From the sequence record OQ973471.1: a stretch of DNA of 64,000 nucleotides; one strand, 5' to 3'. Under the pieces are notes generated by a model. The model saw only the letters and a program-made list of their open reading frames with translations. It made no database searches and was not told where the DNA came from. The DNA is from Escherichia phage AV101. Both the position numbers and the translations under genes were made by a program. Position 1 is the stretch's first letter. Every line of letters starts with the position of its first letter. This document shows, piece after piece, positions 1 to 51,464 of the stretch.

Positions 1-1102
1 CCCGCGCATTATAGAATATCACAAGACAACCTCCCTTGGTGCTTCTGAAGATGAAGTGTCGTGGTGTGCGGCGTTCGTGGGTTGGGTTATGATACAGGCT
101 GGATACACGTCTACACGCTCCGCTCTTGCCCGATCTTACCTTACATGGGGCACTCCACTGTCAGCACCACAATATGGCGCTATCGTAGTCTTCCGGCGTG
201 GTAACAACCCCACATTTGGACACGTAGCGTTTGTGCAGAAGTTCGATGCAAACTATGTCTGGTGTATTGGTGGCAACCAATCCGATTCAGTGAAGGTTAG
301 TCGTTTCAGACGTTCTTCGGTCTTGGGATATCGTTGGCCTGGTCCTGCTAACACAGCCACAGCCGCGCCTGCGCAGCAGAATGGTAAATGGTCAGAACCT
401 ATCCCAGATCGTACTCCAAAGGAACAACCGACTCCGGCTCCTACTGGGCGAGTACAGGATATTGACAACACTGGAGAAACCATGGTTCCGGCTGCGGGTG
501 GATCTAAATACCCGTACAATAACGTCATGGTGTCCCGAGCTGGGCATATTATGGAAGTGGATGACACCCCTGGCGGTGAACGTCTTCACTGGATGCATAA
601 GTCTGGGTCTTACAAGCAAATGTTGCCGGATGGTGATGTGGTCAACAAGTCCGTCAAAGACCACTATGACCTGACGATGTTCAACAAGCGTTATTATGTC
701 GGCGGGGACCACAACCTGACGGTCAAAGGAACTGAAGTTCAGCGCAAGACAGGTGAGGTCTATCATTTGCATTCCAACAATTACTCCAACGTGGTTGCGG
801 GCACAGCGCTGATGAAATTCAGTGACCTAGCGGAAATGCAAGCGCAGAATATTCTGCGCATTATCTGCGAGACTCTGGAGGTCGGTGGGACATTGAAGGT
901 TCCTAAGATTCTAACGACTGAGATCATCGCTGACAAACTGACGGTTGCTCAGACGATCAATGGTAACATTATATATGCCGAAGGTGCTGGTCGTGCTTCT
1001 TCTCTGTCAGGTGCAACCCCTGCATCCCCTACGGGTCCGGGTGAGATTGACATCAAGGCAGAATTAAAAGACAATGGTGGTAATTTCGGCACCAAAGAGT
1101 AA
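1..1102 (+). CDS. Tail/baseplate-associated peptidoglycan hydrolase, 5' end truncated by window (papain-like Cys/His CHAP/NlpC-P60-type domain; gp5-like role suggested by position upstream of gp25-like gene)
   Basis: Reading frame open from base 2 with no upstream stop; motif SWCAAFVGW ... GHVAFV typical of Cys/His PG hydrolases; immediately precedes gp25-like gene. Confidence 0.5.
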   Translation, partial: PRIIEYHKTTSLGASEDEVSWCAAFVGWVMIQAGYTSTRSALARSYLTWGTPLSAPQYGAIVVFRRGNNPTFGHVAFVQKFDANYVWCIGGNQSDSVKVSRFRRSSVLGYRWPGPANTATAAPAQQNGKWSEPIPDRTPKEQPTPAPTGRVQDIDNTGETMVPAAGGSKYPYNNVMVSRAGHIMEVDDTPGGERLHWMHKSGSYKQMLPDGDVVNKSVKDHYDLTMFNKRYYVGGDHNLTVKGTEVQRKTGEVYHLHSNNYSNVVAGTALMKFSDLAEMQAQNILRIICETLEVGGTLKVPKILTTEIIADKLTVAQTINGNIIYAEGAGRASSLSGATPASPTGPGEIDIKAELKDNGGNFGTKE

Positions 1103-7195: not shown

Positions 7196-7990
7196 TTAAC
7201 TGAAACTCTTGTATGCTGCTGCGAGCTTCGCGTCGTACTGGTTCTTGGCATACGCCGGACCATTATAGCGCCGTGCAAACTCAGCCCAGTTCTTGTCCTT
7301 CAGAGCCTGCCAGAGCTTGGCGTCAGCCTTGATGAACTTCACGAATGCCATCAAATGAGCACGTTCTCCTGTCAGGAAGTCGTTGAACATCTCCTTGGCG
7401 TTGGCATATCCACAGACCTGGCAGTTGAATCCCATGATCTGGAAGAGACCGTAAGAGGCGCTCTCGTACGCACAATCCTCATCGATGTTGATCGCTGCAT
7501 GAAGTCGATCCAACTCCGCGTCGCCTCCCGTGTACCCGCCTGCGGAAGGACTGACCAACGTCGGGTACATATGTCCCATGGCATTCGCCCGAGCCTGTCC
7601 GAACTTCGCCATCAGCTTCTTATACATGATGTGGCGCTCAAACAATGTCTTGATCTTACCTGACTTGGTGAAGCCCGTGCCGCGCGACTCAACCTGATTC
7701 ACCGCCTTGACAGAGGCAAGGTCAACACCCAGATCATTAGCAGCATCAATCAGGTCTGACTCAGTTAGATGATCCTGATGGGCGTCTCCGGCGTTGCGAA
7801 TAGCATAGGAGGTCTTTGGACCCACGATACCATCAATGACAAGTCCCGCACCCGCCTGAACCGTCTTGACGGCGTTCTCTGTTGCCTTACCAAAGATACC
7901 ATCAGCGACGAGGGTGAAGCCGATTTTGTTGAGGCTATTCTGAAGTGCCTTCACTTCAGTGCCACGGTTGCCAAGTTTTAGAATGGCCAT
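7196..7990 (-). CDS. Modular endolysin: N-terminal peptidoglycan-binding domain plus muramidase/transglycosylase-like catalytic domain
   Basis: PG_binding_1-like repeats (DGIFGKATENAVKTVQ...GLVIDGIVGPKT); catalytic region with VESRGTGF and GLFQIMG motifs; GGAGG RBS 9 nt before ATG at 7990. Confidence 0.75.
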   Translation of the reverse strand: MAILKLGNRGTEVKALQNSLNKIGFTLVADGIFGKATENAVKTVQAGAGLVIDGIVGPKTSYAIRNAGDAHQDHLTESDLIDAANDLGVDLASVKAVNQVESRGTGFTKSGKIKTLFERHIMYKKLMAKFGQARANAMGHMYPTLVSPSAGGYTGGDAELDRLHAAINIDEDCAYESASYGLFQIMGFNCQVCGYANAKEMFNDFLTGERAHLMAFVKFIKADAKLWQALKDKNWAEFARRYNGPAYAKNQYDAKLAAAYKSFS

Positions 7991-8175
7991 AAGAAATACC
8001 TCCACAATGAATGCAGAGGTATTTAAAGTGAAAGTGAACTACTCGAGAAACTGAGGGAAAACTTTGTTCGGAATGTGGTCAGCAACCCAGAGAGCGCCTA
8101 AAGAGGATTGAATGGCTGCGATCTCCTCCCAAGACCTGATAGGGGGAGTTGTCTCCCCTATGTTACACGTCGGGA

Positions 8176-12119: not shown

Positions 12120-12127
12120 TATTTATA
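12120..12127 (-). promoter_or_regulatory. T4-type late promoter TATAAATA (minus strand)
   Basis: Exact TATAAATA on minus strand 25 nt upstream of ATG 12095, directly after a terminator hairpin. Confidence 0.5.
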
Positions 12128-17020: not shown

Positions 17021-17331
17021 ACGTTTGTCTCAGATGTTCGGTAAAGGATTTACCCAGCTTGCGGAATAGTTTAATACGACCAATGACTTTGACGTAAACA
17101 TCTCCGTGGCAGGGGCGCGGCTTACACCAGCACCCCAATACCTTCCCGTCAAGATCAAGGAGTTCATCCTCAGTGATATCCCCCTTCAATCAGGCGCACA
17201 TACAGGTCGTCCTCAAACAGTTCGATACAGACGCCTCGTCCATGGTCTTTGACCTCAAACGGGTTTCCCCATTTACCAGGCCGACCAATGTAAACGTCAT
17301 ATGGCTCCTTCTTGAAGTGGACGACTTTCAT
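17001..17331 (-). pseudogene. DUF4326-like gene interrupted by +1 frameshift in a G5 run
   Basis: N-terminal ORF 17170..17331 (MKVVHFKKEPYDVYIGRPGKWGNPF) and C-terminal ORF 17001..17189 (..GCWCKPRPCHGD..) join into one ~110 aa protein if one G of the run at 17180-17184 is removed. Confidence 0.5.
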
Positions 17332-17492
17332 TTCAGGATTTGACCTGCAAGTAGATAACAGAACCAGACAGAGAACCCGAGATACCCCAGTGCTTTCAGG
17401 TAGTTTTTCCTTTCGACTTCACGAGAAAACGCAACGATGTCAATGATGCATGCAAAGACCAGGATTGCGAGTTTAATTTGTTCGTAGTTCAT
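17328..17492 (-). CDS. Small two-helix membrane protein (54 aa), below ORF-track cutoff
   Basis: Hand translation MNYEQIKLAILVFACIIDIVAF...LGYLGFSVWFCYLLAG; stop overlaps start of downstream DUF4326 ORF. Confidence 0.35.
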   Translation of the reverse strand: MNYEQIKLAILVFACIIDIVAFSREVERKNYLKALGYLGFSVWFCYLLAGQILK

Positions 17493-17494
17493 GA

Positions 17495-19840
17495 TCAATC
17501 CTTCTTGATAACTTCAGTCAGGCCGTTTCGCAGGCCGTAGCGAATGTTGTGTTGGAAGTATTCCTGGAACTCCTGCTCACGCTGGCTGATGACAAACAGG
17601 TTGTTCCCACCGAACTTATGCTTCAACATCTCAACCGATTCCTGCACCCCGCGCTCGCTCATGTTCTCAAGGATCTCGTCCAACACGAACAGGTTACATT
17701 GTACAGACGCCTTGAGGTTAGCCACATCGCGCAGAGCTAATGTCACAGCCAGGTTCAGACGACTGCGCTGACCAGTAGACAGGGAGAAGATGCTCTGTCC
17801 TTTGCGGCCTGCTGCGCTCATGGTGATCTCAAAGGTATCGTCAACAACGATGTCCAAGAACATGTTGAGGGCTTCAAGATACTCGTTGATCTTGCTATTG
17901 AGGAATGGAAGATACAGGGCGATGATACGCGCCTTGGTCTGGTCATCTTTCAAGAAGAACAGCAGGTGCTGTAAGTCCTGGAGTTCCTGGTCGGCATCCT
18001 CGCGGCGCTGGTATAGATCCTCCAGTTCACCCTCCAACGCAGCGATAGAGTTCTCTAGGTCGGTGGTAGGTGTTGGCTGTACAGCCAGTTTACGCTCCAG
18101 ATCGGCAATAGACGCCACGAGAAGAGCACGACGGGCTTTCAGCTCGGCGATCTTATCATCGACGGCTTTAATCCCGCTGACGGCATTCTCTCGCTTCTGT
18201 TGCAGCGACGCAGTGATGTCTTCAAAACGAACGTTCAGCGCCTTGCGGATGTCAAGGATCTTCTGTTGACATTCACGGTTCAGGGAGTTGCATTCAATCG
18301 TGGCAGCGTCATGGAACCCCTGAATATCACGACGCAGCTGCTTGATGTTGTCAACGATTTCGTCGGCCTTCTTGCGCATTGCATCCAGTTCAGCATCCAA
18401 CACAGCAATGTCAGCAACCAGCTTGTCGTCCTGGGCTTTGTGGTCATCGATCAGGACATTGATATCGGCGGTAACTTTGTCCAGTTGATCTAACTTCGAC
18501 TGTAGTTCCTGGATCTGAGGATTGTACTCACTCTCAATCCGCGCCTTGGTGTCATCAGACACCAGTTGGGTACATGTTGGGCAAGTCCCCATGTCGTGGA
18601 AGCGCTTGATGGCCGACTGATGTCCATCCATTTCGGTCTGGAACTTGATGCGGAAGTTCTCACCCTGCTGGCGGCGCTGAATAGCAGCGTTCAGGGCGTC
18701 CAGGTTTGTGTTGCGCTCGGTGAGCAGGGTGTTCTTGCGTTCGGCCACTGTAAAGGCGCGGTCACGCAAGACCTGAAGATCATGCTCCGCAGTAGACACT
18801 TCGATGCGCTCATAATCATCGGCCTTTTCCTGAGCGACATCCTTCACCGCCTGGATCTTGGCATCAAAGTCTTTCTTGACAGCCTCGATTTCCACCATGG
18901 ATTCATCATGCAGGCGGCTTTCTACCGTCTTCATTTCCTGGCTGGCTTCGAACTCAACCGCAGTGAGGCGGGTGCGCTCTTCGTTCTGGGCGGCGATGTC
19001 AGCATCCAAGGAATTCAGGGCTTCCTGTTGCTGTACAAGGATATCGGCCGATTGCTGTTGGATCAGGGCGTTGGATTGCTCGATCTGCTGAAGCTGCGTC
19101 TTCTTGTTGGTGTGGTCAACAACCTTCAACGCACATTCATTCGCGATCGTGTCCAGCTTTTCGTTCGCTTTCTTGATGGATGCCTTGACATCTTCGTTCA
19201 TCAGGCTGAAGAAGCCCAAGTCCCAGATAGTCTCCACCATGGCGCGGCGGTCGGCTGTGTACATCTCCGTGAACGGAATGAACTTCTCTTTGCCCAGCAC
19301 CAGAGAGTTCTCAAACATCTTCTGGTCCACGCCGATGAGGTTCACGATGTACTTGTTCATGTCGGCTTTGGCTGCTTCGTTATCGATCTGCAACCACTTG
19401 CCGTCCACCATCTGGTAGACTTCAACAAAGTCAGGTTTAATACCACGGCGAACCTTCCATTCGTTACCACGGCAGGCAAACTCCACCTCACCCACACATT
19501 CCTTGCGGCTTTGTGAGTTTACCAGGCCTGCCTTCTTCTCCTTCTTACTGTACGTGTCGTTGTACAGTACGAAAAACAGCAGCCATACCAGCATCGTGGA
19601 TTTACCCGCGCCGTTGTCATCAGACGTAACAAGGGTGGCCGGGTTGCGCTGATAATCAATCTCCATGAACTGATTGCCGATGGAGCGGAAGTTCTTGGCG
19701 CGGCCTTTGCGGAAGGTCAGTTTGTGTGTAACAACGTTACGCACTTCAAATGGGACTTCAACCTCGACCGGGGCGTCGGCTTCCTTCAAAAGATTACCAA
19801 ATTTGGTCAAGATATCTGTGCTCTGAGTCATGTTATGCAT
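17495..19840 (-). CDS. gp46: Recombination endonuclease subunit, Rad50/SbcC-like (T4 gp46)
   Basis: 781 aa; Walker A DDNGAGKST, long coiled coil, zinc hook CPTC, follows gp47. Confidence 0.85.
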   Translation of the reverse strand: MHNMTQSTDILTKFGNLLKEADAPVEVEVPFEVRNVVTHKLTFRKGRAKNFRSIGNQFMEIDYQRNPATLVTSDDNGAGKSTMLVWLLFFVLYNDTYSKKEKKAGLVNSQSRKECVGEVEFACRGNEWKVRRGIKPDFVEVYQMVDGKWLQIDNEAAKADMNKYIVNLIGVDQKMFENSLVLGKEKFIPFTEMYTADRRAMVETIWDLGFFSLMNEDVKASIKKANEKLDTIANECALKVVDHTNKKTQLQQIEQSNALIQQQSADILVQQQEALNSLDADIAAQNEERTRLTAVEFEASQEMKTVESRLHDESMVEIEAVKKDFDAKIQAVKDVAQEKADDYERIEVSTAEHDLQVLRDRAFTVAERKNTLLTERNTNLDALNAAIQRRQQGENFRIKFQTEMDGHQSAIKRFHDMGTCPTCTQLVSDDTKARIESEYNPQIQELQSKLDQLDKVTADINVLIDDHKAQDDKLVADIAVLDAELDAMRKKADEIVDNIKQLRRDIQGFHDAATIECNSLNRECQQKILDIRKALNVRFEDITASLQQKRENAVSGIKAVDDKIAELKARRALLVASIADLERKLAVQPTPTTDLENSIAALEGELEDLYQRREDADQELQDLQHLLFFLKDDQTKARIIALYLPFLNSKINEYLEALNMFLDIVVDDTFEITMSAAGRKGQSIFSLSTGQRSRLNLAVTLALRDVANLKASVQCNLFVLDEILENMSERGVQESVEMLKHKFGGNNLFVISQREQEFQEYFQHNIRYGLRNGLTEVIKKD

Positions 19841-22267: not shown

Positions 22268-22275
22268 TATAAATA
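22268..22275 (+). promoter_or_regulatory. T4-type late promoter TATAAATA
   Basis: Exact TATAAATA 36 nt upstream of ATG 22311. Confidence 0.5.
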
Positions 22276-25768: not shown

Positions 25769-26431
25769 TTACACCTCCACCGCGTGAGACTTCAGGAGTT
25801 CATCAATCTCTTTCTGTCCCATGTATGAGAACGGGGTGCGCTGGTAGAACGCCCAGAGTACTAACTGGACAACAGCACGGGAACGGGTTTCGGCCGTCAT
25901 CACCAGGCCACTGAAATGAGGAGACTCAGCTGTCCATTGTATCTCTTCGCCCAGGTCTTGATTACAGGTCACCGAGATGCGGAACTTGTTGCACAGATTG
26001 TCGACTTCTTTGTACGCATCGGTAGACACACGAAGTTGTTCCGCATGCACCCACGGAGTTGTGATGATTCTTTCACCCATCACTTTATCAGAGATAAACC
26101 AATCAATACATTCGGTAAACTCACTAAAATGGTCGATACGATAAATGCAGTCTCCCCCTTCCATAGAACGCATGGCATGATAGCGAGCGTCAATTTCGTT
26201 GTTATGCATAGCGTTGAAGTCGATGAACACGCGACGCGCCAGCACAACATCTTCTGGTTGAAGTGCCAGGAAATCGTTCAGGCGGCTATAATGGAGGACA
26301 TTGGAACCGTCGTGGCCACGTGTGCAATATGCGTAATGGCTACCGATACGGGCGTGGGCAATATAAGACAACGGGGCGAAGAATAATCCGTCAGGATCAG
26401 GACCGACGATAATAGAATAAAGTTTTTCCAT
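25769..26431 (-). CDS. Hypothetical protein (220 aa)
   Basis: Start set by conserved leader/RBS. Confidence 0.4.
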   Translation of the reverse strand: MEKLYSIIVGPDPDGLFFAPLSYIAHARIGSHYAYCTRGHDGSNVLHYSRLNDFLALQPEDVVLARRVFIDFNAMHNNEIDARYHAMRSMEGGDCIYRIDHFSEFTECIDWFISDKVMGERIITTPWVHAEQLRVSTDAYKEVDNLCNKFRISVTCNQDLGEEIQWTAESPHFSGLVMTAETRSRAVVQLVLWAFYQRTPFSYMGQKEIDELLKSHAVEV

Positions 26432-26487
26432 GATATAGTCTCTCAAATGAAAGGGTAGCTTTATGATAAGCCGCCCGAGGTTATTGA

Positions 26488-27357
26488 TTATTGGAAATCG
26501 CCAACATACATGTTCAGCTTGTCATCCCAATTCAGAACAACACGGATCGTTCCGGTATCTTCTGGGAAGGTCAGTTTGTCACACATGGCGCGATTAACAT
26601 AAGTCCCGCTCTGGTTGACGTTGTAGTCCTTGCCTTGCATGATACCAAAACGCTTGAAGTCGCGAGTGACCATCATGTTCAACGTGGTCCACGGAATGAT
26701 GTCACGCAAGGCTTTGCACAGGATGATCTTGCCATCCGACCTGAACGACACAAACAGCTCGTTGGCGACACGACGGCGAGTAGGCGGTTCAAGTTCACGC
26801 AGGGAAATGAATTGTGAATTCTTTACCTTTTCTGCCAGCGCCTGTACTTCTGCTGGATCCGGCTTGAACGGCTCCACTGAAGAGTCAGACTTCATCACAA
26901 CGTCACCCTTGCGCTTCTCAACCAATTGCTCCACAGCCTTTTGACTCACGGGAGGGAGGTATTTGGACTTAGGAACAACCGCTGGCTTGATGACAGGGCT
27001 TGCATCTGGTTTCGCCTTTGGAGTACTCCGTGCCGCACGCAGCTTTTCCTGGGCTTGTAGAATGCGCTCTTGACGAGAAAGCGGAGCCTTTGGGGTGATC
27101 TTCGTACTGAAGTCAGAAACGCCGACCCAGTCACCCTGGTCATTACGCTTGGCTACCAGAGTCAGTTTGTGGATGATACCCTGAAGTTTGCTCTCACGCA
27201 AGTTGTCAGCATACCAGAACTTCGCGCCCATCTCGAACTTCTCGGCGAAGATCACGCGAGCGTCTTCGTGTACCAACATAACTTTGGCTGCGTTGGGGGC
27301 AAAAGCCTTATTCTTTTCGATAATCGCCGCAGCGATTGTTTTGGTCAGGAGCATCAC
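26488..27357 (-). CDS. Hypothetical protein (289 aa)
   Basis: ORF with Lys/Pro-rich central linker. Confidence 0.4.
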   Translation of the reverse strand: MMLLTKTIAAAIIEKNKAFAPNAAKVMLVHEDARVIFAEKFEMGAKFWYADNLRESKLQGIIHKLTLVAKRNDQGDWVGVSDFSTKITPKAPLSRQERILQAQEKLRAARSTPKAKPDASPVIKPAVVPKSKYLPPVSQKAVEQLVEKRKGDVVMKSDSSVEPFKPDPAEVQALAEKVKNSQFISLRELEPPTRRRVANELFVSFRSDGKIILCKALRDIIPWTTLNMMVTRDFKRFGIMQGKDYNVNQSGTYVNRAMCDKLTFPEDTGTIRVVLNWDDKLNMYVGDFQ

Positions 27358-27393
27358 AGTGTATTCCTTCAGTTCACAATGTAGGGCTAAATT

Positions 27394-27723
27394 TTAACCC
27401 GAAACTTTATTTTGAAATCCGACAAAGTCCTGGGCAATCCCCCGGCAATACATCAGGTCTTTCTTCGTTTGTGGACTGTTGTCAGCCGCAGTCAGCATCA
27501 TGGGAAGATCCAGCGCATTCTCTATCTGATCAACACTGAACAGATCAAGGCGCTTCAGCTCTCCCTCAAAGTCAGACAGGAGGATAGATGTGTCTTTGTC
27601 ATCTGGGTGGAACTGCTGATACGTCTCCATCCATGCCACACATGTGTTCAGTTTGGACGGTGGCGCAGCGTTTACACACCCGGCTATCAGTACCAACAAG
27701 AGCAGGATTTTACATTTCATCAC
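27394..27723 (-). CDS. Putative lipoprotein (109 aa)
   Basis: Signal peptide with lipobox LIAGC; 4-bp overlap with upstream exported-protein gene. Confidence 0.5.
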   Translation of the reverse strand: MMKCKILLLLVLIAGCVNAAPPSKLNTCVAWMETYQQFHPDDKDTSILLSDFEGELKRLDLFSVDQIENALDLPMMLTAADNSPQTKKDLMYCRGIAQDFVGFQNKVSG

Positions 27724-28406
27724 TCGTTCTCCTTCATCATATTGTCGCAGTCAACACGAGTCTGCTGGAGTTCGCGCGACATGCGAGGATCATCAAGGTT
27801 CACGCTCAGATTCGTGGACAGGTCTTTCAGACCGTTCTGAACCCTGTCTTCAAAGTAATAATCGTTCTCAACCAACCAGGCTCTGAGACCGAGAGCGCGA
27901 GTGCGCCATTCCTTCTTCAGGACGCGATCAGAGGTCTGCGTAGCGCTGTATTCGAATACTTTGATGCACTGGTTGCCATCGTTGATGAGGTTCAGGTGAC
28001 GGCGGCCTATCTGCACACCCTTCTGTAATGCCGGAGAAGGGAGCGAACGGCACTGTCTTACGGTCATTCGGCCTTGGGTGCCCATACGCCCAGTCATGAT
28101 TAAATCGCCAGCCTCCATGCCTCCACGGTTAAATTCGTCGTCATTGAGGTAGCCCTTGAGGTTATAGGCTCCCTGTTTGTAACGGTTGAACTCAATTCCG
28201 GCATTGACGACAGCGGTGAAGACGTTGCCTGTGTTCCAGAGTTCAGCGAAGTTCTCTATGGAACCGGACTTGTCGATGGCAACCGCCTGGGAGAACCCAG
28301 CACAATAGGAAAGGTCGGACCACAGTTTATCACCTGTGGAGTTCAGCTTGGCAGCGGCGGGTAATGCCAGACCAGCCAGCACAACCCCGAGGATTAAACG
28401 TTTCAT
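27720..28406 (-). CDS. Exported/periplasmic protein (228 aa) with N-terminal signal peptide or signal anchor
   Basis: MKRLILGVVLAGLALPAAA N-terminus; AAGGAG RBS. Confidence 0.5.
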   Translation of the reverse strand: MKRLILGVVLAGLALPAAAKLNSTGDKLWSDLSYCAGFSQAVAIDKSGSIENFAELWNTGNVFTAVVNAGIEFNRYKQGAYNLKGYLNDDEFNRGGMEAGDLIMTGRMGTQGRMTVRQCRSLPSPALQKGVQIGRRHLNLINDGNQCIKVFEYSATQTSDRVLKKEWRTRALGLRAWLVENDYYFEDRVQNGLKDLSTNLSVNLDDPRMSRELQQTRVDCDNMMKENE

Positions 28407-28485
28407 GGTGATTCTCCTTATTTCATTGGATGAAATGATAGGCGGCTCACCATGTTGAGTAAAGGGATTCAATAAACTATCGTAT

Positions 28486-28935
28486 TCAGAAACGGGTATC
28501 GCTGACCGTTCTGTATCGCACACCCTGAAACTGTTTAGCGAGTTTAACAAATTCCATCGCTGGCAAATCAACTTTGTAGACCTTCATGCGCTGTTTGCCG
28601 TCCATGTTCAACGCAGCGACAAATCGGTGAGAACCGTCAACAACGTAATTGTCAGAAGATACCCAAACTCGACCCATAGGTTTCTTATTTCTGATCTGCT
28701 TCATAATCTTCCAGACCTTCATTTTATTGATTTCGTTCTGGGTAAGACGAAGTATTTTGATGGGCACTTGCACAGCATCTATGGACACGCCGTTGTCTTC
28801 AAGATATTTGTGAAAATCTTCTTGTTTGTCGGCATCGATTTGTGGCATAGAAGAACGCGAAAGCCCGAGGTTCCCAACAGGAATCCTCAGGCCGTTAATG
28901 ATGTTCAACCAGTCAATAAAAGATGTAAGGAACAT
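28486..28935 (-). CDS. Hypothetical protein
   Basis: 149 aa ORF. Confidence 0.4.
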   Translation of the reverse strand: MFLTSFIDWLNIINGLRIPVGNLGLSRSSMPQIDADKQEDFHKYLEDNGVSIDAVQVPIKILRLTQNEINKMKVWKIMKQIRNKKPMGRVWVSSDNYVVDGSHRFVAALNMDGKQRMKVYKVDLPAMEFVKLAKQFQGVRYRTVSDTRF

Positions 28936-28967
28936 GACACACCTCGGGATATAGGGTTATCCCTTAG

Positions 28968-29159
28968 TTAGCGCATCCATCGATCCTTTCTCTCTTTCTC
29001 CTTGCGTTCGCGACGTTTCTGGTCGGATCGGAATAACCAATAGAAGAAGTTCCCACCCAAGATGAAAACCACCGCGATTATTACTAGGACACCCTTCACA
29101 ATTTCCCAAACCAATTCTTTATCCAAATTATACCTCGTCTTCTTCAGGTCCACCGTCAA
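28968..29159 (-). CDS. Small single-TM membrane protein with highly charged C-terminus (holin-like topology)
   Basis: 63 aa; hydrophobic stretch VLVIIAVVFILGGNFFYWLF followed by KRRERKEKERKDR. Confidence 0.4.
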   Translation of the reverse strand: MTVDLKKTRYNLDKELVWEIVKGVLVIIAVVFILGGNFFYWLFRSDQKRRERKEKERKDRWMR

Positions 29160-29415
29160 TCAGGATACGAGCGGTGTCGAAAGTTTCCCCGCCCGTGTTC
29201 AGCAGCTTAGTCAGATCGTCAAGATATCGAACCGTGCCAAGATCAGATGACCGCGATATAAACTCCAGCATACCATACAACGCTGTTTGGAATCGGCTGT
29301 TATCGATATCGTTCTTTATTACCATCAGGCGCAAGATGTTCTCTGACTGAGTATGGCCAACACACGCCTTGTCTCTGATCATCTCCTTGATAGAACTTCT
29401 CTCTGATGGTGTCAT
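29128..29415 (-). CDS. Hypothetical protein
   Basis: 95 aa ORF. Confidence 0.35.
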   Translation of the reverse strand: MTPSERSSIKEMIRDKACVGHTQSENILRLMVIKNDIDNSRFQTALYGMLEFISRSSDLGTVRYLDDLTKLLNTGGETFDTARILIDGGPEEDEV

Positions 29416-29786
29416 AACGTACCCCCGACAGAGATCAAGAACTCTTCTTGCATGGTCTTGACCGGGTGGTGGTTGCGGGTTTCGATCATGAAGCCCCAGC
29501 CGCCGTCGGCGACGTTGCCAAAGGTCTTGACGCCAAAGGACTTCGTCCCGTTGGAGCAGGAATAGATGTCCAGGACGTATGGGCTACCCTGATTGTCGAT
29601 CCCACGATTCACGTCGTCTGATACGCAGCGCTCAATCATCTTCCCGTTCTTATACAGAACGAGGTCTTGGCCATACGCCTTGAAAGCATAAACACCGTTG
29701 GTAGACACTCCGGTGATGACAGGAGGGGCGGAAACAGCAGCAAAGGAAGCGCCTAGCAGGGCAACAGCGAGGATTAACTTTTTCAT
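29412..29786 (-). CDS. Exported protein (124 aa) with signal peptide
   Basis: MKKLILAVALLGASFAAVSA signal peptide; conserved hairpin and leader upstream. Confidence 0.5.
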   Translation of the reverse strand: MKKLILAVALLGASFAAVSAPPVITGVSTNGVYAFKAYGQDLVLYKNGKMIERCVSDDVNRGIDNQGSPYVLDIYSCSNGTKSFGVKTFGNVADGGWGFMIETRNHHPVKTMQEEFLISVGGTL

Positions 29787-29810
29787 GATATAGTCTCTTG
29801 GTTTCAAATG

Positions 29811-29832
29811 GGCGGGGTAATCATACCCCGCC
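29811..29832 (-). repeat. Conserved leader hairpin, copy 1
   Basis: GGCGGGGTA-TGAT-TACCCCGCC immediately upstream of RBS. Confidence 0.6.
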
Positions 29833-29838
29833 GTGGGT

Positions 29839-30345
29839 TTATAGAGTAACAAGTGATACGGTAAAAACCATCGTCCCGTCTGTTGCCATTTTTCTTGAAA
29901 CTGGTATGACGCGAGGCTGGCAGAATATCCATTCTTTCTCCATGGACGCCAAGTCCAGCATATCCATTTCTGATTCATCGCCTTTGTTCACAAATTTTTC
30001 TAGAGAACCATAGACATTAAGCCCCTCCGGGAGTCTGTTTCGATGTTTGTAACAAATGCGGGCAACAGCTTTGGTTCCGTACGATTTAGAAAATTTTTTG
30101 GCCACATGCTTCAGTTCACTGAAGCTAAGACAAGAGTCCCATGTCTGGAACATGTCGCCTCGTTCAAACATTATCTCTAAACGCGCAACGTCCTCTTTAG
30201 GCAACCCACGATAAAGTGTGGTCGTCTGTGGTTCGCGCAATTCTTGCACCAGATCGCGGACGGCAGGGGAAACAGTACCGGGGCGCATGATGTGGGACTT
30301 ATCATGGACGAGGTAAAATAAATCTTGAATTTGTTGATCGGTCAT
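29839..30345 (-). CDS. Hypothetical protein (168 aa)
   Basis: Start at conserved leader; hairpin upstream. Confidence 0.45.
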   Translation of the reverse strand: MTDQQIQDLFYLVHDKSHIMRPGTVSPAVRDLVQELREPQTTTLYRGLPKEDVARLEIMFERGDMFQTWDSCLSFSELKHVAKKFSKSYGTKAVARICYKHRNRLPEGLNVYGSLEKFVNKGDESEMDMLDLASMEKEWIFCQPRVIPVSRKMATDGTMVFTVSLVTL

Positions 30346-30369
30346 GGTATAGTTCCTGCATTTCAAATA

Positions 30370-30391
30370 GACGGGGTAATCATACCCCGCC
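30370..30391 (-). repeat. Conserved leader hairpin, copy 2
   Basis: Same 20-nt core CGGGGTAATCATACCCCGCC about 560 bp from copy 1. Confidence 0.6.
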
Positions 30392-30404
30392 CAAAGTTAT
30401 AGAA

Positions 30405-30644
30405 TTAACTGATGTGCTTCAGAAGAGCGAAGAGGATCGCGGCCTTGGCCTTTACCTTTCCCACGATGCCTGTCTCGACATCAACTTCTTCAGCAACCCA
30501 CTCTTTTCCCTTCTTGCTGATGATAACGTCACGGCGCTGTGCGTAGACTTCTTTGGTCGCATACACACGGCGGAACCCTTTAGCGCGGAGCAATCCCCAA
30601 TTGCGATCAATTTCTACTGAGGTTTCTACCATTTTGTTCTTCAT
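30405..30644 (-). CDS. Hypothetical protein
   Basis: 79 aa ORF. Confidence 0.4.
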   Translation of the reverse strand: MKNKMVETSVEIDRNWGLLRAKGFRRVYATKEVYAQRRDVIISKKGKEWVAEEVDVETGIVGKVKAKAAILFALLKHIS

Positions 30645-49334: not shown

Positions 49335-50120
49335 TTATACCGCATTTCGTGGATTAGAATCAATCGCCTTCCCACCAGATAGTGGAACCAGCTGTTGGAA
49401 CTTGAAGGTCACTGTCGTCACCAGCTGAGGTACAGCCGCGTCTACGTCCACCAGTACGTTGTCCAAAGCAGTCGGGCGGGCTTCCTCCAGCACGAGAGTG
49501 AGGCCAATCGGTCGGTTGAGGTTATCCAGCAATTCAATGGTAATGTCCTTGCTGACAGGCAAATCCTTGCCGACGTTGCTGGTAATCCATTGGTGGATCT
49601 GTAACCATGATTTCCAGTCCTCGTCTATAACGAAAGTAAATACGACGGGATCATAGGTTAAACGCTCTGAAGGTATAGAAACCAACACGTCACCAGGAGA
49701 CGGACCATCGATGCCTTCGGAGTACACCCCTGGTATACTGAAGTCGTGGATGTTACGGGTTAGGAGTACAAGGTCTCCGATAGTCAGACGCCACTTATCG
49801 GACGCCGCGAAATTAGGGTTTTCGTTCTTGAATTGTACGTTGGACATAATAGCACCTTTGCTGTGGAGATATTTTGTGACCCTGATGCGCGGGATCAGTA
49901 GATTGTTGTTGGCATGCTCGATGCTCTTGTTTACGAGCTGTCGCATCTTTGTCACGCCAATAATTTCTGTTTCCGAACTCTGGAACCCAGAAGTGCGCAC
50001 TGTACCTGTGACGTTGTCGGCCAGCGTTCCCACTTGTAACAAGGGTATGCTGGACATCATCGTGCAAGAGTTCCAGCCCTTCCAGAAGCTCGTACCTTTA
50101 GGTTGCTTTGATGAGAACAT
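49335..50120 (-). CDS. Hypothetical protein, possibly structural; start uncertain (ATG 50120, 50060 or 49847)
   Basis: ORF open to 50150; good RBS before ATG 50120 and before ATG 49847. Confidence 0.4.
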   Translation of the reverse strand: MFSSKQPKGTSFWKGWNSCTMMSSIPLLQVGTLADNVTGTVRTSGFQSSETEIIGVTKMRQLVNKSIEHANNNLLIPRIRVTKYLHSKGAIMSNVQFKNENPNFAASDKWRLTIGDLVLLTRNIHDFSIPGVYSEGIDGPSPGDVLVSIPSERLTYDPVVFTFVIDEDWKSWLQIHQWITSNVGKDLPVSKDITIELLDNLNRPIGLTLVLEEARPTALDNVLVDVDAAVPQLVTTVTFKFQQLVPLSGGKAIDSNPRNAV

Positions 50121-50526
50121 GAGCACCCTCAAGCCATACTGGAAGACCACAATTCCTCTCCTGCGGCATGGCGATGAAGGGAAGATTCCATACCTATCAG
50201 CAAGTATTTATTACTCTCAGAATAACAGCATCATTATCACTTTTAATCCATCATTCCATGCCAAGCTGAAGCAACACATGGTTGGGCGACTGGATACAAC
50301 ATCAGATATAATCGTGACGTTCAAGATCATGAATGACTCAGATAAACCAGTACGAATCGCAACTCAGGGTGTGTTCGTTAACAACGACGCGGTTGGAAAT
50401 GGGATGAGTATCTTTGAAGTTAACCCAGGGGGAACGATCTTGATCAGACTGAGTAATGTGGGTGTGAACTCCCTGCTGTTGGATGGCATCGAACCAGTGG
50501 GAGTTCTTCCGGCGCGGGAGCACTGA

Positions 50527-51297
50527 TTACTTCAGCGCGTTCTTCAGATTATCGGAACCAATGCTGTTGATGACACCTCCGGCGCAGATATCTTTCGCCC
50601 ACTCTGATATCACGTTGGCAAAAGAGAAGTTAAGACACTTACCAACCATGTCTTGGATATGGGCTAACTCTGCTGCAATACCGTTCGTGATGTCCTGAGC
50701 AATAGAGGCTACTGATGCGACAGCAGTGTCGATGGCCTGAGTAACTTCAGCAGCCAGTGCCCGAATAGCATCAAGACCAGCACTGACACCCTGAGCTACC
50801 AACTCAGCCAGCTCATTCATCTTGTTTGTGATAGTTGTGAGAACACTTTGCATGGTGTTGATCCACTGTTTGCCGAGGTTCTGAATAACCCCAAATGCAT
50901 TATTGATCAGATCACAGTTGTTCGGTTCTCGACCTATAGACTTCAGGGCGGACTTATATGACACAGATGTACCGATGCGGGAATATGCCTCGTTCACTGA
51001 CTGGTAGCCATAGTTGTTCAAAGTAGTGATGCTGTCGTTGGCTGAGTTAAACATTGCTGTAGATTCGTTGAGTTTGGCTGTAGTCAACCCACCTGCCGTC
51101 AGCGCTTCCTGAATCTGCGTATTTCCGGTGTTAGCCAGTGACGCTGTAGTCGCCTTACCACTGGTGATTAACCCCTGCGAGGCGCTGCTGAGGGACGGGA
51201 GAGGATTGGTAAAGGCGTTGCCCTGCGATAGGGCGTCATAGATCTGTGCGTTCATAAGAAAATACCCCCATGGATGATGGGGGTATTTAGGGATCAT
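50527..51297 (-). CDS. Hypothetical Ser/Thr/Ala-rich protein (256 aa), possible late/structural protein
   Basis: ATGA overlap with a small upstream membrane ORF suggests coupled start at 51297. Confidence 0.4.
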   Translation of the reverse strand: MIPKYPHHPWGYFLMNAQIYDALSQGNAFTNPLPSLSSASQGLITSGKATTASLANTGNTQIQEALTAGGLTTAKLNESTAMFNSANDSITTLNNYGYQSVNEAYSRIGTSVSYKSALKSIGREPNNCDLINNAFGVIQNLGKQWINTMQSVLTTITNKMNELAELVAQGVSAGLDAIRALAAEVTQAIDTAVASVASIAQDITNGIAAELAHIQDMVGKCLNFSFANVISEWAKDICAGGVINSIGSDNLKNALK

Positions 51298-51464
51298 GGT
51301 AGTTTGTAAACGAAGTTGGACCAGAACTTACGAACAAACTTCTTGACATAAACCATTCGGTTGGCGTATTCCCCATCCTTCAGGTCATTGTAGGTCTCGA
51401 TCCCTACCGCGCCCAAGAAGTACGCCGTGAAGATATAGCAGAACAGATTGATGACGACAAACAT
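51294..51464 (-). CDS. Small membrane protein (56 aa), below ORF-track cutoff
   Basis: Hand translation MFVVINLFCYIFTAYFLGAVGI...; GGAG RBS; stop overlaps downstream start. Confidence 0.3.
   Translation of the reverse strand: MFVVINLFCYIFTAYFLGAVGIETYNDLKDGEYANRMVYVKKFVRKFWSNFVYKLP

Follow-up and report, generated by a model that had tools for sequence, protein, structure and literature searches.

Do two adjacent, overlapping genes of Escherichia phage AV101 (OQ973471.1), here called B and A, encode a two-component spanin, as the names given to their homologues imply, or a different kind of exported pair? The genes lie in a 64,000-nucleotide stretch of this genome (the window; coordinates in Table 1), within a 2.4-kb segment in which a first-pass annotation, made by a model from the sequence, saw either a candidate pair of inner- and outer-membrane spanins (i-spanin and o-spanin), proteins that disrupt the outer membrane during lysis, or a superinfection-exclusion or lysis-control module. 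Our analysis suggests that B and A form a translationally coupled, Sec-exported, disulfide-bonded periplasmic pair of Ackermannviridae-type phages and not a membrane-spanning spanin complex, a reading to which we assign a probability of about 0.6. The narrower proposition that the proteins are an exported periplasmic pair and not a canonical spanin is, judging from their signal sequences, very probable; the specific role of inhibitor or exclusion factor that we propose by analogy is tentative and rather doubtful.

The spanin label rests on one unverified annotation, doubted by its own curators. The homologues in phage Marshall, which are 97% (B) and 99% (A) identical in protein sequence to the pair of the window, are annotated as i-spanin and o-spanin; the PHROG family phrog_3843 is labelled “Rz-like spanin”; and a 2024 comparative paper lists both genes, under spanin names, as core genes of Vi01-like phages (PMC10892097). 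Kongari et al. 2018 included the Marshall pair in their survey of spanins, where its 300 periplasmic residues (vs. a minimum of 62) make it the longest among 528 two-component systems and where the curators filed it as a singleton flagged “too long?” (PMC6139136). We found no experiment on the lysis genes of Ackermannviridae in the literature, and no usable transcriptome or lysis study for the family. The i-spanin/o-spanin reading of the first-pass annotation agrees with these existing names, but the cleavable signal of B, the lack of a predicted coiled coil in its Marshall homologue and the absence of a lipobox from most A proteins speak against it; we regard the label, on the evidence of the sequences set out below, as probably wrong.

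B lacks the uncleaved inner-membrane anchor expected of an i-spanin, judged by sequence rules for signal peptides. Its N-terminus (MKRLILGVVLAGLALPAAA/KLN, with the slash marking the predicted cut here and below; Shine-Dalgarno sequence AAGGAG at 28414–28419) holds an uncharged stretch of 16 residues (L4–A19) with a helix-breaking Pro at −4; the anchors of the i-spanins in the survey are mostly of 20–23 residues, with one at 17 (PMC6139136). In an alignment of 16 B sequences (A1), the Pro at −4 and the Ala at −3 and −1 (P16, A17 and A19) are present in 16/16, as are four cysteines (C35, C119, C147 and C220), and the hydrophobic core, of 12–16 residues, varies. By the same rules, the distant homologues P0068, P0069, P0075 and Bue1 carry ordinary cleavable signal peptides (distant N-termini: MKIKCALLAAGLVVSTSAWS, MNIKKFILYLALGLVSFHASA/A, MKKITIALALTMGLVSTANA/G and MKILIPIIAGLCFISAPVHA/R). 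We infer that B has a cleavable signal peptide and not a membrane anchor in every lineage, with cleavage after A19 yielding a mature protein of 209 residues with a near-neutral isoelectric point (pI) of 6.8, and we predict that it is soluble in the periplasm throughout the family.

The rest of B gives a less clear picture. The Marshall “i-spanin” is predicted to be 35% helix and 12% strand, with zero coiled-coil segments by Pepcoil (PMC6139136 supplement), and a crude heptad scan of B gave no strong register. The first-pass annotation had named a cleaved signal peptide together with the lack of a coiled coil in the 228-residue protein as grounds for abandoning its proposal, and this combination is what we find in silico, from sequence rules for the former and from the Pepcoil result for the latter; yet more than 120 accepted i-spanins likewise have no coiled-coil prediction (PMC6139136). 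The length of B is not conserved: its C-terminal half is gone in MH929319.1 (126 residues), and it is shortened in Bue1 (165 residues), with A kept in both. An assembly built on such a protein is unlike a periplasm-spanning ruler; and because A is kept alongside the N-terminal domain only, that domain would be the partner of A, if A has one. The polar motifs NDGNQC and DDP are invariant among the 16 aligned sequences. B has homologues in 270 phage records, every one at least 80% identical; when 1.84 billion representatives were searched exhaustively with a profile, only 10 proteins emerged, all of Ackermannviridae type and too few for a deeper alignment, and searches of Pfam, NCBIfam and PDB sequences gave no match.

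A carries an outer-membrane lipoprotein signal in the window phage, but not in most of its family. Read from the ATG, A has 108 residues (109 from a GTG at 27723), and its N-terminus, MKCKILLLLVLIAG/CVNA/AP, contains a canonical lipobox (LIAG/C) with Val at +2, followed directly by a retained signal peptidase I site (VNA/AP), which appears to be the ancestral processing site of A. A lipobox of the form L-[IM]-[AV]-G-C occurs in 6/36 clusters of A proteins (90% identity). In the nearest variant without it (P0037), Ser replaces the lipobox Cys, and most other clusters have no Cys in the signal sequence, which ends in a signal peptidase I site of the form x-x-A/A-P. The lipobox is present in 3/21 A loci from IMG/VR and in one of five further phages from other genera: Shigella phage AG3 (Agtrevirus) has it, and Kuttervirus phage 38, Dickeya phage phiDP10.3, Taipeivirus T751 and Erwinia phage Bue1 do not. 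Three distant relatives, namely a 156-kb food-metagenome contig, a Logan contig and MH929319.1 (labelled L005, L006 and L010), encode A proteins with plain signal peptides (VLA/T, ARA/D and AQA/A) and no lipobox. We considered whether the N-terminal Cys of the Kuttervirus proteins (LFLC) might be a lipobox and rejected it, as a Leu at −1 does not fit the canonical motif and Tyr takes the place of the Cys in some of these proteins. The outer-membrane lipoprotein signal that is stated as a requirement for spanins (PMC6139136) is, in consequence, not a conserved property of the A family, despite its presence in the window phage; lipid anchoring of A is probably confined to the AG3/ZQ1/Marshall type, with a soluble protein in most lineages.

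That A orthologues appear to be soluble or lipid-anchored interchangeably suggests that only their periplasmic location matters; and if B is soluble and the tether of A optional, the two proteins together cannot link the inner membrane to the outer. The predicted mature form of A, counted from C15, has 94 residues, a pI of 4.4, five prolines and two invariant cysteines, and an AlphaFold2 model of it (predicted local distance difference test, pLDDT, 80.9; predicted template modelling score 0.71) shows five helices in a compact bundle. A is thus modelled as a folded acidic helical bundle, not as the short proline-rich or poorly structured chain of many o-spanins; this is weak evidence, as structured o-spanins were accepted by the survey, in which the Marshall “o-spanin” is predicted to be 56% helix (PMC6139136 supplement). 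Searches of A against Pfam, NCBIfam and PDB sequences gave nothing above noise.

B and A stay together across the genomes compared. The TGA stop of B (27720–27722) and the ATG of A (27718–27720) overlap by one base, and the Shine-Dalgarno sequence of A (AAGGAG, 27729–27734) is embedded in the last codons of B. The same stop/start overlap is found in Marshall, CECAV_050, ZQ1, T751, Bue1, AG3 and the three distant relatives. B lies directly upstream of A in 21/21 IMG/VR loci and also in the three distant contigs, in which B is 32–35% and A 32–47% identical. A scan of IMG/VR for the pair in other phage types and contexts, such as beside an endolysin, returned only contigs of 152–161 kb of Ackermannviridae type with the same synteny. 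Only B and A form a stable unit, and they occur together in every relative that we examined. The overlap of a signal-peptide gene with a lipobox gene that the first-pass annotation described is therefore real (IAGC lipobox, one-base overlap), and it is the gene architecture of the “separated” class of spanin pairs. The cysteines, four in B and two in A and all of them invariant, are consistent with periplasmic disulfides.

Two further observations concern the sequence of B. Its C-terminal M-K-E-N-E (window 27725–27742, minus strand) is near-invariant across genera, and its codons hold the AAGGAG of A; it may be the overlapping translation signal, and not the function of the protein, that keeps these residues constant. 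In Salmonella phage 38 (NC_029042.1; L011, 217–884), B is frameshifted after ~130 codons and annotated as two short open reading frames, either through a sequencing error or as a natural knockout, which, if real, would make B dispensable.

We propose the following course of events for B and A as a periplasmic pair. One messenger RNA would yield both proteins, with translation coupled through the overlap and the embedded ribosome-binding site seen in the sequence. After its export, B would lose its signal peptide to signal peptidase I, which would cut behind A19 at the P-A-x-A site and leave the soluble mature protein. A would be exported as well; in the Agtrevirus-type clade of the window phage a lipid would be attached to its Cys15, and the Val at +2 would direct it to the outer membrane, on the inner face, and in most other genera it would be cut at the conserved A/AP or A/xP and stay soluble. 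The invariant cysteines would form disulfides in the periplasm, in which the two proteins probably act jointly, as their coupling and strict co-occurrence suggest. The likely activity is the binding or neutralisation of an envelope target; one example would be the shielding of the infected cell wall from the wall-degrading enzymes of incoming virions, giving superinfection exclusion or resistance to lysis from without. The first-pass annotation had named periplasmic inhibitors or exclusion proteins as alternative roles; such a role would be compatible with the data, and it is the direction that we prefer.

The analogy for this activity comes from the periplasmic lysozyme inhibitors PliC/MliC and from the immunity proteins against type VI wall effectors, which occur in soluble and in lipoprotein-anchored forms and for which only the periplasmic location matters. 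A orthologues show the same split between soluble and anchored forms, which favours a binding or neutralising role. Two phage systems offer partial parallels. T4 Spackle (gp61.3) is a periplasmic inhibitor of the tail-tip lysozyme that acts in superinfection exclusion; A resembles it in being small, helical, exported by a signal peptide and encoded by a T4-like myovirus among non-late genes, but Spackle is a single protein rather than one of two, and no similarity of sequence or fold between Spackle and the pair was found among the matches listed. Moreover, the gp5-like hub protein, examined in a close relative, has Gp5_OB and CHAP domains and so carries a CHAP peptidase and not a lysozyme; the “tail lysozyme” label is therefore misleading, and a Spackle-like inhibitor would have a different target here. 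(The hub gene lies at L004, 863–2473, in Salmonella phage vB_CECAV_050, and the C-terminal part of its homologue at window positions 56–1102, plus strand.) T5 Llp and the Cor proteins of phi80 and N15 are receptor-blocking phage lipoproteins that depend on their lipid anchor and act alone. A is, by prediction, likewise a phage-encoded outer-membrane lipoprotein in this clade, but across the family its anchor is dispensable and the soluble partner B is always co-encoded.

Several points weigh against a non-spanin periplasmic pair. The lipobox in A of the window phage is perfect. Cleavage, lipidation, disulfides and complex formation are all deduced from sequence rules. An AlphaFold2 model of B built on the 16-sequence alignment is unusable for assigning a fold or any catalytic site (pLDDT 33). 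The rest of the genome of Escherichia phage vB_EcoM-ZQ1 (ZQ1), the closest complete genome, yielded no better spanin, and if these phages need an outer-membrane disruptor, the pair stays a candidate by elimination. Finally, the genomic location of the pair does not decide against a lysis role, as the true spanin genes of T4 also sit among early and metabolic genes.

The search in ZQ1 bears on a bolder version of our proposal, in which Ackermannviridae have no canonical spanin and B–A is a new soluble two-protein periplasmic system; we think this possible but somewhat unlikely. Such a system may be a non-bridging lysis factor of the wall or outer membrane, or an inhibitor of the phage's own CHAP-type tail-tip hydrolase that is non-homologous to Spackle; on either view, the spanin name carried by hundreds of genomes would be mistaken. 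Two other ZQ1 proteins were considered as spanins and set aside. The first, a DUF7292 protein, is the only other credible lipoprotein, but its gene adjoins that of a cytoplasmic nucleotidase and has no membrane partner. It has 113 residues, is cysteine-rich and carries the lipobox STTAC (L007, 21447–21788, outside the window); the ZQ1 record calls it “5′(3′) deoxyribonucleotidase”, an apparent swap with the real nucleotidase gene just downstream. The second is a 112-residue protein in which a helical, heptad-rich tail of ~78 residues follows an N-terminal transmembrane segment; it is encoded beside the gp13 neck gene with no lipoprotein reading frame nearby (L009, 4480–4818, minus strand; ZQ1 record 143479–143817, outside the window; phrog_3961, function unknown; weak Pfam matches to LPP zipper and P10). 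Its predicted architecture is more like that of an i-spanin or a holin than is that of B. Ackermannviridae may lack a recognisable spanin, which would leave the pair some room as an unconventional lysis factor.

It is also possible, though unlikely, that the pair consists of an effector and its cognate inhibitor or chaperone, with B as a periplasmic enzyme or toxin acting on the wall, on lipoproteins or on outer-membrane biogenesis, and A, made in fixed ratio through translational coupling, restraining or targeting it. The order of a larger, near-neutral B and a coupled, small, acidic and helical A recalls effector–immunity pairs; the pairing is strictly conserved; the invariant NDGNQC and DDP motifs could be functional sites; and the survival of A with only the N-terminal domain of B, in L010 and Bue1, suggests that this domain is the partner of A. 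However, none of Pfam, NCBIfam, PHROGs and PDB sequences links B to an enzyme family, its structural model gives no help, the loss of its C-terminal part argues against one conserved catalytic domain across the whole protein, and nothing indicates toxicity.

A genuine but atypical two-component spanin, with B uncleaved in the inner membrane and A in the outer membrane, forming a complex that fuses or disrupts the membranes once the endolysin has removed the wall, is slightly less probable still. The likeness to known spanins is considerable. As in lambda Rz/Rz1 and in T4 PseT.3/PseT.2 (a “separated” pair), the two genes adjoin, and the stop of the first overlaps the start of the second; the first encodes a protein with a hydrophobic segment at its N-terminus, the second, in this phage, one with a canonical lipobox and a residue other than Asp at +2, and both proteins have periplasmic cysteines. 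The T4 spanin genes, like B and A, do not adjoin the endolysin gene. To this may be added the names in Marshall, in phrog_3843 and in the database of Kongari et al. 2018, the core status of both genes in the phage family, the many accepted i-spanins that share the lack of a coiled-coil prediction, and the want of an alternative candidate in ZQ1. What decides against it, in our view, is the comparison across orthologues: in all lineages the N-terminus of B has a short hydrophobic core and an unvarying signal peptidase I motif in place of a type II anchor, and some lineages have lost ~100 C-terminal residues of the protein; the required lipoprotein signal is missing from most A orthologues, and A is modelled as a compact helical bundle. 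The periplasmic parts (206 + 94 residues) are far larger than those of other spanins, being the maximum of the 528 systems surveyed, and the pair's place there is that of a doubtful singleton.

Control of lysis timing, in which B and A, once secreted, would attach to the periplasmic domain of the phage holin and, like T4 RI, delay lysis upon superinfection, appears very unlikely. The family is T4-like and has rIIA and rIIB; B and A are, by prediction, periplasmic and, like RI, contain cysteines; and a holin must exist, as the endolysin has no export signal. Against this, none of ten membrane proteins scanned in the search of ZQ1 matches a holin family, neither B nor A resembles RI, and RI has a signal-anchor-release domain and works alone, not as a pair.

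The endolysin (7196–7990; PG_binding_1 and a PF11860 muramidase domain) has no membrane or lipoprotein gene as neighbour, in agreement with the first-pass statement that no gene of the cluster lies beside it. Promoter motifs give weak hints on the expression class of the pair. No match to the T4-type late promoter TATAAATA, with one mismatch allowed, was found on the coding (minus) strand between 25 and 34 kb; TTTAAATA, one mismatch from it, occurs ~30 nt upstream of the endolysin start (8020–8027, minus strand), and perfect matches at 12120–12127 (minus strand) and 22268–22275 (plus strand) precede another minus-strand gene and a virion gene. Scans for sigma-70 promoters and terminators gave background levels.

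Table 1. Genes and sequence elements of the B–A locus and its neighbours (window coordinates)
Feature	Position	Strand	Description
Gene A	27394–27720	−	108 aa from ATG; exported, predicted lipoprotein in this phage; phrog_3843
Gene B	27720–28406	−	228 aa; secreted (predicted); phrog_4260, function unknown
Gene C	28486–28935	−	ParB-like, cytoplasmic; phrog_2859, weak match to phrog_1033
Gene D	28968–29159	−	Small single-pass membrane protein; phrog_14464 “membrane protein”
Gene E	29128–29415	−	Neighbour within variable island
Gene F	29412–29786	−	124-aa secreted protein (predicted); phrog_5474, function unknown
Gene G	29839–30342	−	ADP-ribosyltransferase-like; weak phrog_832 match
B signal peptide MKRLILGVVLAGLALPAAA	28350–28406	−	Residues 1–19; predicted signal peptidase I cut after A19
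A signal sequence and lipobox L-I-A-G-C	27676–27720	−	Cys15 codon at 27676–27678
B/A coupling junction	27718–27734	−	Shine-Dalgarno sequence of A in the end of B; stop/start overlap

The region around these genes (26400–30500) is 97.7% identical to ZQ1 and to Enterobacter phage fGh-Ecl02, and its identity to many further Ackermannviridae, among them members of Agtrevirus and Kuttervirus (such as Marshall and Maynard), is 86–93%; by these identities the window phage belongs to the Agtrevirus-like Ackermannviridae. The genes around A–G all lie on the minus strand, in a block devoted to replication and nucleotide metabolism that includes a helicase, SbcCD, a late sigma factor, RNase H, HU, a VWA protein and an acyl carrier protein. 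The four open reading frames that the first-pass annotation had grouped (A, B, D and F) are all present on this strand where it placed them, and each belongs to a PHROG family of its own; with matches in 281 (A), 270 (B), 104 (F) and 58 (D) phage records, they are, by their conservation, real genes and not chance reading frames. GenBank record OR844945.1 (“Enterococcus phage Efm 3-10”, 7.9 kb) also carries a B gene, at 90% identity, and is almost certainly a mislabelled or contaminant Ackermannviridae fragment.

Of the seven genes in Table 1, C is always just upstream of B and is the best conserved of the C–B–A trio (63–71% identity in the distant relatives). D, E, F and G make up what appears from the comparison of genomes to be a variable island (28936–30400, minus strand) between conserved genes, in which D and F are accessory. 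D has the single transmembrane segment and charged tail that the first-pass annotation gave to a 63-residue protein (19-residue Kyte-Doolittle mean 2.66; basic tail RSDQKRRERKEKERKDRWMR); the more plausible start is a TTG at 29126, which is preceded by GAGG and gives 52 residues, as annotated in Marshall. Its best Pfam match, to Phage_holin_2_4, is below threshold (E = 0.061; 13.7 bits vs. a cut-off of 30), and we rejected D as the holin of the family, as an accessory gene found in 58 of ~280 family genomes cannot be the essential holin. F is a second signal-peptide protein, as proposed, with a conserved signal peptide and two invariant cysteines; it falls into 10 clusters in a large protein database, all from this phage family, and searches of Pfam, NCBIfam and PDB sequences gave nothing above noise. 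G, which is missing from Marshall, weakly matches (E = 2.7e−14) the C-terminal part of phrog_832, “RNA polymerase ADP-ribosylase”.

The clustering itself is real, as 4/6 plausible exported or membrane genes of the window fall inside the 2.4 kb, but the notion of one module finds no support, since D and F are missing from distant relatives that keep B and A. The other two such genes encode single-pass proteins of 56 residues (17328–17498 and 51294–51464, minus strand; phrog_34593 and phrog_4845, neither with an assigned function). Among the reading frames of the window, A alone has a convincing lipobox; a looser motif also fits three nested starts at 49858–50526 on the plus strand. A single functional envelope module made up of A, B, D and F, suggested by this concentration on one strand, deserves hardly any credence, given the far smaller number of phage records with D (58) and F (104) than with B and A (270–281), the retention of C, B and A but not of D or F in the three distant relatives, the position of the cytoplasmic ParB-like C between B and D/F, and the island that D and F share with E and G; the four-gene “module” is a product of position and not a conserved unit.

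Phages of the Ackermannviridae (Vi01, CBA120, LIMEstone and AG3 types) are widely used in biocontrol and therapy. The sole “spanin” annotation in the family traces to phage Marshall and has since been carried by PHROGs and automated annotation into hundreds of genomes, and the main value of our analysis lies in correcting this widely propagated label and in drawing attention to how these practically important phages lyse their hosts. There is also a general lesson: a lipobox in one clade and an adjacent hydrophobic N-terminus are insufficient for a spanin call, and it costs little to check whether orthologues conserve the anchors. Should the pair prove not to be a spanin, Ackermannviridae would join the minority of Gram-negative phages without a known outer-membrane disruptor (91 of the 677 genomes surveyed had no recognisable spanin; PMC6139136) and would be a place to seek a new one; and B and A, as a core, lineage-specific secreted pair, would become a target for studies of superinfection exclusion and envelope manipulation.

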